Sequence record: PZ445517.1
DNA length: 64,000 nt
DNA from: a phage
Reading direction: 5' to 3' (one strand)
A model generated the notes under the pieces. It searched no databases, was not told the DNA's origin, and saw only the letters and a list, made by a program, of their open reading frames with translations. Positions within the stretch are counted from its first letter, which is position 1. Each line of letters opens with the position of its first letter. Positions 39,354 through 52,043 of this stretch are shown in pieces. The translations under genes were made by a program, and so were the position numbers.

Positions 39354-40070
39354 ATGAATTATAAACTAATTTATGAAAAGTTAATCTCTAATGCTAAATC
39401 TCGAAAACTTGATTGTTATACTGAATCTCATCACATTATACCACGCTGTTTAAATGGCAGCGATGATGCTTCAAACTTAGTAGATTTAACACCAGAAGAG
39501 CACTATGTAGCTCATCAACTTTTAGTAAAAATTTATCCTTCTGAACCAAAATTAGTCTATGCTGCTAACATGATGACAGTTTCTACGAAATACGCTAAAC
39601 GCAACAATAAAACTTTCGGTTGGATTCGTCGTAAACTCTGGGAAATAGAAAAGAATAAAGAATTCTCCCAGGAGACACGAAAGAAAATGTCTGATGCAGT
39701 AGCTAATAAAGCAAGACTAACTTGTCCTCATTGCGGTAAGTCTGGATTAAGCGGGAATATGAATCGTTGGCATTTTGATAACTGCCCAAATCACCCTAAT
39801 CCTAAAGTTAGACCACCAATGTCTAAAGAACACAGAAATAATATCTCAAACGGGCTTAAAGCAATCGTTCTTGAAGAAACATCCTGCGAATTCTGCGGAA
39901 TGATAGGCAAGAAATGCGTTATCGCAGCGCATAGAAATTTCTGCAAGAAAAATCCAAATGGACGCAAGAAAACTGAAAAGACTGGTACTTGCGTCCATTG
40001 TGGTAAAGTTACCACTTTCGGAAATTTATCAAGATGGCATAATGATAACTGTAAATATAAACTTAGCTAA
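39354..40070 (+). mobile_element. free-standing HNH homing endonuclease (Mob-like) with three CCHC zinc-finger-like repeats
   Basis: 238 aa on the opposite strand to all neighbours; HNH motif ...ESHHIIPRCLNGSDDASNLVDLTPEEHYVAH...; three CxxC-x11-H-x3-C modules; 3' end overlaps the gene 46 stop convergently. Confidence 0.8.
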
Positions 40071-48814: not shown

Positions 48815-48929
48815 ATTTTACCCTTAATTAATTAACAAAGCATTGATAAGTACTAAACTATATTGGGAATAAAATTCTGGACCAAAATGAAAAATCATAT
48901 CATTTATAGTATCCATAATGCAATTCAAT

Positions 48930-49400
48930 TTAATCATGTTTCCACACCCCATCGGTATTTGACCAAAGTCGCTGATTATCTGATCCTCGCCACAGCTTTT
49001 TAGTCGGAAGATTTTTCTCATACTTCCCATCAATAATAACATCAACATATTTAAGCATTTCTAGTTGTTTAATATCTTCAAACTTATATCCTGTCCACAA
49101 CCAAATGCTTTTATTGGGATAAAGATTTTTAATAGTTTGAACCACAGAGTGAATCACGTCTCTGTTATCAGGATAAAGAGGGTCACCTCCGGTTATAGTC
49201 AATCCTTCTATATAATCATTATTCAAACATTCAATTAATTGTTCTAGTGTTTCACCAGTGAATGGAACACCATTTCTAGCATTCCATGTTGATTTATTAT
49301 AACACCCTTCGCATTTATGCAAACAACCCGTAACGAAAAGAACTGTCCTGCATCCAGGACCATTAACAAAGCAGCACGGGTATATTCTGTCATAATTCAT
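48930..49400 (-). CDS. nrdG: anaerobic ribonucleotide reductase activating protein NrdG (radical SAM)
   Basis: 156 aa, same length as T4 NrdG; Cys cluster CLHKCEGC. Confidence 0.85.
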   Translation of the reverse strand: MNYDRIYPCCFVNGPGCRTVLFVTGCLHKCEGCYNKSTWNARNGVPFTGETLEQLIECLNNDYIEGLTITGGDPLYPDNRDVIHSVVQTIKNLYPNKSIWLWTGYKFEDIKQLEMLKYVDVIIDGKYEKNLPTKKLWRGSDNQRLWSNTDGVWKHD

Positions 49401-50229
49401 TTATATATTTCCAATTATAGCCTTCAACACTTTTACGTTCGCCATTTAAACATTTTAAAATATTTCCTTTGCTAGAAATATTAAAATATTTTGCTGCGTC
49501 TGGTATATAATTAAATGTTTTTAAAAGAACACCATCTTTATATGCGCCAAATAAATTAAGAGTATATTTTTCTCGAAGACGCTGATGTTTCCTTTTCATA
49601 ACCTCAGGATTTGCATACGCCAACTTCAATGAATTTCTGTGTTTTTCTTTTACTTCAGGTTTTTGCATTGCTAACTTAGTTAGCCTGGAAATTTTATTTC
49701 TAACTTCGTCAGTTTTCATTGCATTTGACAAATTTAATAAAGTTTTATTTCTAACTTCAGGTTTTTGCATTGCTAACTTAGTTAGTTCTCTATGTCTTTT
49801 TCTAAAATCGTCATCCTTCCATATATTTTTCGATAATTTTGACATAGAGCGGTGAAATAATTCCTTTTCACTGGAATACAATTTAAAAATTTCATCCAAT
49901 TCATCCGCATTAAATCTATCGGTATTCGAGTTTATCATTCTATGAAAGGCATAACACATTTTACTATTGCTTGTTTTAGCTAAATAGTAATGAGCTAACG
50001 CATGGTCATAATATGACAAATTAACAATATTCCATTTATCTGTTTTATATTCAGGAAATATAGATTTGGGAAGCACGTGATGTGCTTCCGTTTTTCCTTT
50101 TATTTTAGGATTATTATAATTTTTTGTTATCAAATCAACATATGACAATAGTAAATCATTATTTTCTTCAAATATTAAAGCTAATTTATCATTCACAAAA
50201 TCGCAAGGATAAAATCTATCATAATTCAT
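49390..50229 (-). mobile_element. Mob-type HNH homing endonuclease inserted between nrdD and nrdG
   Basis: 279 aa; HNH motif ...EAHHVLPKSIFPE...NIVNLSYYDHALAH; first 13 codons MNYDRFYPCDFVN echo the nrdG N-terminus MNYDRIYPCCFVN; tandem LTKLAMQKPEV repeats. Confidence 0.8.
49652..49785. repeat. 32-bp perfect direct repeat pair inside the HNH gene
   Basis: acttcaggtttttgcattgctaacttagttag at 49652-49683 and 49754-49785; encodes the repeated LTKLAMQKPEV module. Confidence 0.7.
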
Positions 50230-52043
50230 TGGTGTTTAACCCTATGCATGATTTCTTTATTTTTACCGAGATTAAATCCGCGTTCATTCGGATTTCCCAA
50301 ATAACCACATGTTCTTCTTATTGTGTTCATCTTTTTAGGATCAGTTTCTCCACAGATAGAACAAACAAATCCGTTTTCAGTAGGAGTCATTTCATGGGTA
50401 CTTCCGCATGTAAAACACTTATCTACTGGCATATTAACACCAAAATAATCTAAATGCTGTGCAGCATAATCCCACACGGCCTCAAGACCTTTTAAGTTAT
50501 TTTTCATATCTGGAAGTTCAACATAAGAAATGTGACCGCCGGTCGCTATGAAATGATAAGGCGCTTCACGAGAAATCTTTTCAAACGGAGTAATATTTTC
50601 TTCTACTGAAACATGGAAACTGTTAGTGTACCAGCCTTTATCGGTAACATCCTTTACACTTCCATATTTTTCTGTATCGAGTTTACAGAAGCGATAACAA
50701 AGGTTTTCAGCAGGAGTAGAATACAAGCTAAAAGCAAATCCAGTTCTTTCAGTCCACTGTTTAAGACGAGCATTCATTTTAGTTAAAATTTCTCGTCCAA
50801 TATCACGACCTACAAGAATATTCAATTCGTGAATACCAATGTATCCTAGAGACACTGAACTTCTGCCATTTTTAAATAACTCAATTATATCGTCATCAGG
50901 TTTAAGACGAACCCCGAATGCACCTTCTTGGTAAAGAATAGGAGCAACAGTCGCTTTAACTCCTTTTAAGGAACTAATTCTACACATCAAAGCTTCAAAA
51001 CACAAATCCATTCGTTCATTGAACAATTCAACAAATTTCTGTTCATTGAATTGTGTTCCAATATAAGAATCTAACGCGATACGAGGAAGATTCAGTGTTA
51101 CAACACCGAGATTATTACGTCCATCAAGAATTTCATTACCAGTCGAATCTTTCCATACACTCAAGAAACTACGGCAACCCATTGGAGAAACAGGAATAGA
51201 TGAACCGGTGATAGCTTTATTATTCTTAACTGAAATAATATCAGGATACATTCTTTTGCTTGCGCATTCTAGAGCGAGCTGCTTAATATCATAGTTCGGA
51301 TCGTCTTTATAAAGATTAACACCTTCTTCAACGAACATAACAAGCTTAGGGAAAATAGGAGTTATCCCATCACGGCCAAGACCTTTAATACGATTTTTCA
51401 GAATTGCTTTCTGAATCATTCGTTCAGTCCAGTCAGTTCCCGTACCAAACGTAATTGTTACAAAAGGCGTTTGTCCGTTTGAACTAAAGAGAGTATTTAC
51501 TTCATATTCATAAGCTTGGAATGCATCGTATACGTCTTTTTCTGTTTTAGATTGGGCGTAATTCAACGCATCAGCGATTTGCCATTTTTCTGCGTCCTCA
51601 ATATGTTTTGCATAGGTGCGTTTAACATAAGGAGAAAGTACTTTATCTACATTCGCAAAAGTCGTTCCGCCATATTGATGAGAAGCAACCTGTGCAGTAA
51701 TTTGTGCCATAATTGCAGTAGCAACGCCGATTGATTTAGGAGTTTCAATCTGTGCATTACCGAGCTTAAATCCGTTCTCAAGCATTCCTTTTAAATCTAC
51801 TAAACAGCAATTAGTAAATGGAAGAGCAGGGGAATAATCAATATCATGGAAATGGATAATTCCGCTTTCATGCGCTTTCATAATAAAAGACGGGACCATA
51901 TTTTTGGCAATGTGTTTAGACACAATACCAGCCATAAGGTCCCGTTGAGTTGGAAAAACACGAGAATCTTTATTAGCATTCTCGTTTAAAAGGTCTTTAT
52001 TAGTTTTATGAATCAATCCTTCAATTTCTTTTTCAATTGTCAT
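50226..52043 (-). CDS. nrdD: anaerobic ribonucleoside-triphosphate reductase NrdD, uninterrupted
   Basis: 605 aa continuous ORF; C-terminal glycyl-radical region ...RTCGYLG... and zinc ribbon CFTCGS...CSICG. Confidence 0.9.
   Translation of the reverse strand: MTIEKEIEGLIHKTNKDLLNENANKDSRVFPTQRDLMAGIVSKHIAKNMVPSFIMKAHESGIIHFHDIDYSPALPFTNCCLVDLKGMLENGFKLGNAQIETPKSIGVATAIMAQITAQVASHQYGGTTFANVDKVLSPYVKRTYAKHIEDAEKWQIADALNYAQSKTEKDVYDAFQAYEYEVNTLFSSNGQTPFVTITFGTGTDWTERMIQKAILKNRIKGLGRDGITPIFPKLVMFVEEGVNLYKDDPNYDIKQLALECASKRMYPDIISVKNNKAITGSSIPVSPMGCRSFLSVWKDSTGNEILDGRNNLGVVTLNLPRIALDSYIGTQFNEQKFVELFNERMDLCFEALMCRISSLKGVKATVAPILYQEGAFGVRLKPDDDIIELFKNGRSSVSLGYIGIHELNILVGRDIGREILTKMNARLKQWTERTGFAFSLYSTPAENLCYRFCKLDTEKYGSVKDVTDKGWYTNSFHVSVEENITPFEKISREAPYHFIATGGHISYVELPDMKNNLKGLEAVWDYAAQHLDYFGVNMPVDKCFTCGSTHEMTPTENGFVCSICGETDPKKMNTIRRTCGYLGNPNERGFNLGKNKEIMHRVKHQ

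Follow-up and report, generated by a model that had tools for sequence, protein, structure and literature searches.

The window analyzed here is a 64,000-nucleotide (nt) stretch of phage DNA (sequence record PZ445517.1), and the element in question is an HNH-type homing endonuclease gene at the junction of nrdD and nrdG, the genes for the anaerobic ribonucleotide reductase (RNR) and its activase. The phage is T4-like and belongs to Tequatrovirus: positions 48900 to 50400 are 100% identical to Escherichia phage T4_ev240, and about twenty other coliphages match the same interval at 98 to 99%. On the minus strand the order is nrdD, then an HNH open reading frame (ORF) of 279 amino acids (aa), then nrdG, and the three are tightly packed. 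The TGA stop codon of nrdD and the ATG of the endonuclease share the bases ATGA (50226 to 50229). The endonuclease ORF overlaps nrdG by 11 nt (49390 to 49400), so that the nrdG ATG lies 8 nt ahead of the endonuclease stop codon. Comparison of this junction with those of related phages leads us to conclude that the gene is probably a mobile homing-endonuclease cassette that entered nrdG close to its start, the insertion point being between nt 40 and 41.

The start of the endonuclease ORF closely resembles that of nrdG. The two segments, 50190 to 50230 and 49361 to 49401, are identical at 32 of 41 nt (78%) and are spaced 829 nt apart, and the encoded peptides, MNYDRFYPCDFVN in the endonuclease and MNYDRIYPCCFVN in NrdG, share 11 of 13 residues. 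We refer to the upstream segment as block U and to the downstream segment as block D; they have 9 differences over 40 coding nt, F6I and D10C included. The last three codons and the stop codon of the endonuclease sit in the first 11 nt of block D. To gauge the resemblance against chance, we made 100 dinucleotide-preserving shuffles of 48900 to 50300 and scored the best 41-nt direct match in each; the mean was 26.4 (standard deviation, 0.95) and the maximum was 29. Because the observed value of 32 exceeds that of every shuffle, the duplication of the start is beyond chance.

An earlier note, made from the letters of the window, had read this resemblance as an endonuclease gene that lies between nrdD and nrdG and copies the first codons of nrdG, and had pointed to insertion through the nrdG 5′ end. 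All of the sequence features that the note described are present. Phages that lack the insert confirm the last point and reverse the others. (Loci and homologous proteins are cited below by our L and P numbers.) In the insert-free phage DalCa (L001) and eight close IMG/VR loci (L005 to L012), the nrdD stop codon overlaps the ATG of nrdG itself as ATGA, and nrdG begins with ATGAATTATGATAGATTTTATCCTTGCGATTTTGT(G/T)AATG. These relatives hold one copy of the start, not two. Block U is identical to it at 40/40 nt in L009 to L012 and at 39/40 in DalCa, whereas block D, the start that nrdG uses in the window, differs from the insert-free starts at 9 positions. When insert-free and insert-bearing loci are aligned, homology stops right after ...GTGAATG and restarts at G(T/C)CCTGG; thus, the insert is 829 nt long and lies between nt 40 and 41 of nrdG. 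Past nt 41, nrdG is of the local lineage type, with a sliding identity to DalCa of 37 to 40/40 after the first windows. Residue 10 of NrdG is Asp in all 27 insert-free loci (26 from IMG/VR plus DalCa), and Cys, which takes a three-base codon change, is found only with block D. By these alignments, the endonuclease gene evidently lies inside nrdG rather than between nrdD and nrdG. Its first 40 nt are the original nrdG start, and the start that nrdG now uses is a diverged copy traveling with the element.

The cassette is polymorphic for presence and absence at this one exact site. It occurs sporadically, in 29 of 825 matching phage records, and its ORF is full length in 22 Tequatrovirus records and several Klebsiella phage records. 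A search of IMG/VR returned neither a cassette-bearing locus nor a block-D sequence, and one metagenome scan gave a single contig with block D, which adjoins segH (the gene of another endonuclease, discussed below). In two distant lineages (L027 and L028), the nrdD-nrdG interval of 1.3 to 2 kb holds small accessory ORFs and no endonucleases.

Klebsiella phages of the genus Jiaodavirus provide a natural replicate. They and an ENA contig carry the same endonuclease at 86% protein and 85% DNA identity, and its upstream neighbor there is a 72-aa ORF that stands between nrdD and nrdG, instead of nrdD. In the insert-free Jiaodavirus loci (L022 and L031), nrdG opens with MNFDRIYPSDFVN. In the insert-bearing ones, the endonuclease opens with this exact local start, ATGAATTTCGACAGAATCTACCCTTCTGACTTTGTGAATG, and nrdG opens with MNYDRIYPCCFVN, as it does in the window. 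The two genera, whose upstream genes differ, share their insertion point to the exact nucleotide. Between the genera, the endonuclease body is 85% identical, block D is 82 to 87% identical, block U is 77 to 80% identical, and the rest of nrdG is 67 to 69% identical. Because block U is of the lineage's own type and block D is shared by the two genera, block D moves along with the endonuclease and block U is the recipient's own. Likewise, the difference between the cassette (85%) and nrdG (67 to 69%) indicates horizontal transfer that was independent of the host gene. In the record of one of these phages, Klebsiella phage UTI-K1 (L037, 1203 to 2039), the endonuclease is annotated "ribonucleotide reductase of class III, activating protein," as is the adjoining real nrdG; the borrowed NrdG N terminus is the probable cause of this misannotation.

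Table 1. Features of the nrdD-nrdG junction in the window (HNH, HNH endonuclease motif; pLDDT, predicted local distance difference test)
Feature	Position	Strand	Evidence
nrdD, anaerobic RNR, 605 aa, intron-free	50226..52043	-	Pfam NRDD (E = 1.9e-171) and ORF list
HNH homing endonuclease ORF, 279 aa	49390..50229	-	phrog_655 and phrog_12434 matches
nrdG, anaerobic RNR activase, 156 aa	48930..49400	-	Pfam Fer4_12 (E = 9e-49)
Block U, native nrdG start (ATG + 13 codons + 1 nt), now endonuclease codons 1-13	50190..50229	-	Match to insert-free nrdG starts
Inserted cassette, 829 nt (endonuclease codons 14-279 plus block D)	49361..50189	-	Alignment with DalCa (L001) and IMG/VR loci
Block D, recoded replacement nrdG start, MNYDRIYPCCFVN	49361..49400	-	Same block in both cassette-bearing genera
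HNH catalytic core, residues ~45-84, EAHHVLPKSIFPEY...WNIVNLSYYDHALAH	49978..50097	-	Invariant residues, McrA profile match, pLDDT 87-94
Helical linker, about five 17-aa NUMOD3-like modules	49564..49812	-	Repeat families D1 and D3; model helices 140-222
Putative C-terminal NUMOD1/I-HmuI-like DNA-binding module, residues ~228-272	49414..49548	-	Weak Pfam and PHROG matches
Hairpin/palindrome GTCCTGGATGCAGGAC, nrdG nt 41-56	49345..49360	-	Terminator-like scan

The identification of the ORF as an HNH homing endonuclease, also made in the earlier note, was upheld. The protein matches phrog_655 ("homing endonuclease"; E = 7e-37) and phrog_12434 ("HNH endonuclease"; E = 7e-15). Residues H50, H51, N67, H76, and H80 are invariant in the family alignment (A1), and the H-H...N...H...H motif is intact. 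When the family profile was searched against PDB sequences, the segment EAHHVLPKS...WNIVNLSYYDHALAH aligned to the HNH domain of McrA (6ghc; E = 0.0058). The C-terminal module is matched by phrog_7140 and phrog_20162. An exhaustive HMMER search yielded 2347 homologs at E ≤ 1e-3. An AlphaFold2 model built on a 9-sequence alignment (pLDDT 73) has helices at residues 140 to 222 in the linker; the 17-aa helical repeats and a C-terminal beta-hairpin with helices are compatible with a separate, modular DNA-binding region but are modeled at pLDDT 47 to 75. From the PHROG match and the intact motif, we take the gene to be that of an HNH-type homing endonuclease.

The middle of the protein consists of about five 17-aa helical modules of the pattern x-K-x4-L-x2-A-x3-PEV, which account for the repeats seen in the DNA. 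The 32-bp perfect direct repeat described in the earlier note is present in two copies (49652 to 49683 and 49754 to 49785) spaced 102 nt apart; it is nested in a 42-nt repeat of 90% identity, and there is a 51-nt (17-aa) periodicity as well (family D3). The number of repeats, which the note proposed to check, varies naturally. A Logan contig (L045) has the same cassette minus exactly the 102 nt between the 32-bp repeats (window 49684 to 49785), which is the loss of one 34-aa double module, and a 2-nt insertion in this contig makes the ORF end just ahead of the nrdG ATG. Endonuclease genes of ICP1 phages offer a precedent for recombination between repeats that lie in DNA-binding regions (PMC10448857).

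The N terminus of the protein is unlike that of its relatives. In all but a few of the HMMER hits listed, homology begins at query residue 11 to 14 or later, often at about 14, and a start at 11 to 14 corresponds to about residue 5 of the homologs. In the subfamily N termini that we inspected, M-x(2-10) leads into a K-L helix (e.g., MNIREKLLEKF and MIEGKLKEVF). None of 26 inspected N termini was NrdG-like except that of P0003 and the Mob-type MNYxxIY of two distant hits, and P0003, which is 86% identical to the window protein, starts with the nrdG codons of Jiaodavirus, its own lineage. Judged by these homologs, the first 13 residues appear to be foreign to the endonuclease family.

The same design recurs at gene 46. 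A paralog (P0005, RB68 type), 36% identical to the window protein, is encoded between 46.1 and gene 46 and occurs in 72 GenBank phage records. Without an insert, gene 46 of T4 starts with GTGAAGAATTTTAAACTT followed directly by AATAGAGTA. The paralog opens with this native GTGAAGAATTTTAAACTT, in frame with its own body, and the gene 46 beside it restarts from a recoded ATGAAATCATTTAAACTT followed by AATAGAGTA, which changes MKNFKL to MKSFKL. There are thus at least two independent in-frame captures, and T4 mobC would make a third. These in-frame captures support the presumed translation of the endonucleases from the captured start codons, and the recurrence of the design suggests that start capture is a habit of this endonuclease family rather than a one-off event. 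A locus from phage Ac3 (L047, OK040907; 602 to 1500) has the paralog and the gene 46 start with the same proteins at 78% DNA identity and in E. coli-style codons (CTG, AAC, ATC); its paralog starts with GTT, and frameshifts interrupt the ORF. This locus looks recoded or artifactual and was left out of the analysis.

T4 mobC and segH are both known from the nrdD/nrdG junction, and the activity and target of mobC are listed as unknown, "ND" (PMC2988022). MobC of T4 has much in common with the window protein. It is a member of phrog_655, its gene occupies this site and overlaps nrdD (as ATGA) and nrdG (by 11 nt) just as the window gene does, it ends with ...WKY-x-x-EL inside the first nrdG codons, it is sporadic (32/633 matching records), and the first 21 nt of its gene also match the native nrdG start. 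However, the two proteins differ in length (210 versus 279 aa) and in HNH subfamily (HHIIPRSMGGSDD versus HHVLPKSIFPEY), the BLASTP match between them covers the HNH core only (23/60 identities, 38%; E = 1e-7), and the junction with nrdG sequence falls at about codon 7 in mobC versus codon 13 in the window gene. The MNYxxIY start of MobC is typical of its own family, so that capture of nrdG codons is ambiguous there. The 32 records found by megablast with T4 mobC form a different set from the 29 with the window gene. The window gene is, by these comparisons, no ortholog of T4 mobC but a different endonuclease gene at the same hot spot. GenBank already annotates genes of the window type as putative homing endonuclease or "mobC," and the record of phage PST uses the latter name by position.

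SegH is reportedly a free-standing GIY-YIG homing endonuclease from phages of the RB3/T6 type. Its gene is found at this junction in 71 to 73 GenBank records and is likewise followed by the recoded nrdG start MNYDRIYPCCFVN. The nuclease fold of SegH, GIY-YIG, is unrelated to that of the window protein, and upstream of segH there is no copy of the nrdG start but, in RB3, a recoded nrdD 3′ end about 85 nt long. The first three codons of segH, ATGCATAGG, are the native nrdD codons for MHR (Met-His-Arg; L041, phage RB3, 1420 to 1510), and the last ~22 residues of RB3 NrdD are rewritten, TPSVVPWNLGKMKEMVKRVKHA versus NPNERGFNLGKNKEIMHRVKHQ. Because segH starts with nrdD codons and the end of nrdD is rewritten, segH too sits inside a coding end, in this case the 3′ end of nrdD.

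The patch that distinguishes block D covers nt 12 to 30 of nrdG (19 nt), set in an otherwise near-identical nrdG. The block-D 41-mer is present in 78 GenBank phage records, in one copy each. On this distribution, block D appears to be a short mobile patch. Three junctions are mosaic or decayed. In Shigella phage vB_Shso_BCPShso_001 (L042, 780 to 1560), a segH-type recoded nrdD end stops early at TAG; next come 12 nt of the native nrdD tail, a T4-type mobC, and the recoded nrdG patch, in that order. Phage PD112 (L043, 1262 to 1500) has, with block D, an unannotated segH remnant of ~80 aa with an in-frame internal deletion, and its nrdG is annotated from a later ATG. In phage U5 (L044, AY262145; 2440 to 2570), the recoded patch MNYDRIYPCCFVN is accompanied by a short segH-type nrdD stretch, TGCGGATATCTTGGAA; this junction is either the footprint of an element's loss or the result of a conversion that copied the patch alone.

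The comparisons give a cassette with an exact insertion point, a local block U, a block D that moves with the cassette, and passage between genera. On this basis we propose the following mechanism. Insertion would push the native start, block U, upstream and fuse it in frame to the endonuclease, which would thereby inherit the nrdG ATG and the ATGA coupling to nrdD; nrdG would be rebuilt from block D, supplied by the cassette. The endonuclease ATG has no good Shine-Dalgarno sequence, and translation would start at the captured ATG through coupling to nrdD, while nrdG would be translated by reinitiation at the 11-nt overlap. The enzyme is predicted to recognize the intact native nrdG start in cassette-free phages and to cut near nt 40. 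During a mixed infection, repair from the cassette-bearing genome would then copy the cassette in and block D along with it. The carrier would be spared because block U no longer adjoins its right half-site and because block D differs from it by 9 substitutions; those substitutions should also curb deletion of the cassette by recombination between blocks U and D.

The arrangement could also be read in the opposite sense. The cassette would then bring an nrdG start of its own at its 5′ end and would have landed just ahead of an intact nrdG, whose start, the one now in use, would be native and would have done no more than drift. One genome alone cannot distinguish these two circular permutations of an 829-nt insert with a 40-nt repeat. 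The relatives, however, make this alternative very improbable: the upstream block equals the insert-free genomes at 39 to 40 of 40 nt and the downstream block differs at 9, and in the second genus as well the upstream block matches the local lineage and the downstream block matches the cassette. Another explanation, that the resemblance of the two starts is a family trait or chance, draws on the MNYxxIY with which Mob-type HNH proteins often open. T4 MobC begins with MNYDRIYSNLVNSA, and the ambiguity is real for T4 mobC itself; an HNH ORF elsewhere in the window (39354 to 40070) begins with MNYKLIYEKLISNA, and the homologs P0048 and P0104 begin with MNYKKIY and MDYKNIY. We find this explanation hardly credible for the window protein, which belongs to another subfamily (HHxLPKSxFPEY) whose inspected starts have the M-x(2-10) form described above; the DNA identity to insert-free nrdG reaches 40/40 and tracks lineage, and 32/41 matches lie above all shuffles. 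For this subfamily, a family-typical nrdG-like N terminus was rejected on the basis of the inspected homologs.

Several results do weigh against our interpretation of the cassette as an active element with block D as its resistant replacement start. Block D is not exclusive to the cassette; it also flanks segH (RB3 and T6) and one T4-type mobC, and phage U5 carries it without an endonuclease gene. Block D may come from another element or be a hitchhiking foreign flank, and not an adaptation of this enzyme. SegH reportedly cuts gene-bearing and gene-less DNA alike. A Pfam-A search with the endonuclease gave no HNH model at E ≤ 0.1, and its two matches at the C terminus, PF22083 (E = 2.4e-4; 21.1 bits versus a cutoff of 27) and PF07453 (E = 5.7e-3; 17.3 bits versus 22.8), which between them bear the labels I-HmuI_NUMOD-like and NUMOD1, are below the gathering scores. 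A Foldseek search of the model against the PDB found nothing below E = 1.7, for which the extended multidomain shape is the probable reason. Finally, the GTG at codon 12 is a possible alternative start in the window phage; it is GTT in PST and so is not conserved. The status of block D leads to an alternative that we regard as a real, if minor, possibility: the anatomy would be right, but block D would be a coconverted foreign flank left by the donor lineage or element (e.g., segH) that was first to settle at the site. The true target would then be in another place, within nrdD or farther into nrdG, in the manner of free-standing T4 endonucleases with distant cut sites. In keeping with this, the 19-nt patch lies beside three unrelated endonuclease genes, and beside none in U5, segH cassettes also bring a recoded nrdD 3′ end, and SegG is known for distant cleavage with coconversion (cited in PMC2988022). 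What speaks for a target at the insertion point instead is that the patch is short, that it holds the three-base change D10C at a residue conserved in the insert-free loci, and that insertion occurred at the same nucleotide in two genera, as cleavage at or near that point would give. We consider it rather improbable that the endonuclease is no longer mobile and is kept because nrdG translation needs ribosomes that finish its ORF and because the divergence of blocks U and D prevents clean deletion. The 11-nt overlap, the lack of an obvious Shine-Dalgarno sequence before nrdG, the "ND" entered for T4 mobC activity (PMC2988022), and decayed neighbors such as the segH remnant of PD112 fit such a state. 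Yet the catalytic residues are intact, the ORF has stayed full length in both sets of phages, its identity between genera relative to that of the host gene points to horizontal transfer, and the L045 cassette is maintained with no nrdG overlap.

Taken together, the data at nrdG and gene 46 allow a broader, tentative reading, which we think slightly more likely to fail than to hold. In this reading, a clade of phage HNH endonucleases would colonize the first codons of conserved genes (nrdG and gene 46) by a "start-codon hijack," taking over the initiation site and the first 6 to 13 codons and supplying a recoded 5′ end that would be immune to cleavage and resistant to recombination. The nrdG patch (nt 12 to 30, D10C) would be an immunity allele shared by three unrelated, competing endonuclease genes, and at times present alone, as in U5. 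If this is true, the junction would be a natural system for studying competition among endonucleases and the evolution of target-site immunity.

The closest known arrangement is in fungal mitochondria. In atp6 of Allomyces macrogynus and in atp6, atp9, cox2, and nad3 of Glomus, mobile endonuclease ORFs bring in a foreign C-terminal gene segment and the native one is displaced downstream (PMC3630166). As at nrdG, the endonuclease travels with a diverged replacement of the host gene's terminal coding segment, the displaced native segment matches close relatives, and in-frame fusions occur (PMC3630166). The mORF-type pattern of a diverged copy in use and a displaced copy that equals that of relatives is seen in the window cassette in mirror-image orientation: the fungal elements replace the 3′ (C-terminal) end of their host genes, whereas the window cassette replaces the 5′ end. 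The displaced piece is silent in the fungal genes but is reused here as start codon, 13 codons, and translational coupling, and the host is an organelle there and a phage here. Among phage enzymes, I-HmuI, the HNH nicking enzyme of a Bacillus phage SPO1 intron, is a modular monomer with an N-terminal HNH domain, a helical linker, and a C-terminal NUMOD-type helix-turn-helix, an architecture that the window protein, by a weak match, may share. However, I-HmuI is intron encoded and the window gene is free-standing in coding sequence, the Pfam match is below the gathering score, and no structural match was recovered. The HNH Mob genes mobE, in nrdA of Aeh1, and mobA, in the topoisomerase gene 39/60, also lie within conserved phage genes, whose function is retained (bioRxiv 10.1101/2022.08.31.505936). 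In those cases the host protein is split in two or is made by translational bypass, whereas NrdG stays whole by means of its replacement 5′ end. Full-text searches of the literature gave no account of how the gene sits within nrdG, captures its start, and replaces its 5′ end, of the same design at gene 46, or of the patch shared with segH, but an earlier mention may exist in work on this junction. The arrangement is one known in mirror image from fungal mitochondria, and we found no phage description of it.

The anatomy predicts a target for the endonuclease in the mobC position, nt ~10 to 45 of nrdG with a cut near nt 40, for which block D would be a ready-made resistant control. It also illustrates a way in which an element could enter coding sequence with neither intron nor intein, by swapping the 5′ end of the gene and borrowing its translation start; because of this swap and the borrowed start, translation of nrdG would become dependent on the endonuclease ORF. 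Annotation and phylogeny are affected as well: the endonuclease is mislabeled as NrdG activase in one record, the name "mobC" is used for two different genes, and nrdG starts are mosaic.

We also recorded several features of the locus and its neighborhood. A conserved hairpin, GG(T/C)CCTGG-N-TGCAGG(AC/GT)C, begins exactly at the insertion point, directly 3′ of it. Across 40 nrdG loci we saw two covarying versions of it, GGTCCTG...CAGGACC and GGCCCTG...CAGGGTC, and a few mixed forms; the hairpin may act as an RNA element or belong to the endonuclease target. A scan for sigma-70 promoters found 9 versus 10.0 expected from shuffles, which is no excess, and the full T4 late promoter TATAAATA was not found within 48900 to 50500, where only the 7-mer TATAAAT straddles the nrdG ATG. 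In T4 and PST, nrdD holds a group I intron with I-TevII, whereas in the window nrdD is continuous. The window has a second HNH gene, the one at 39354 to 40070, which is on the plus strand, opposite to all of its neighbors. It sits between 45.2 and gene 46, its 3′ end overlapping that of gene 46 by 8 nt, and it encodes a 238-aa protein of the T4 Mob type that begins with MNYKLIYEKLISNA...HHIIPRC and has repeated CxxC zinc-finger-like modules.

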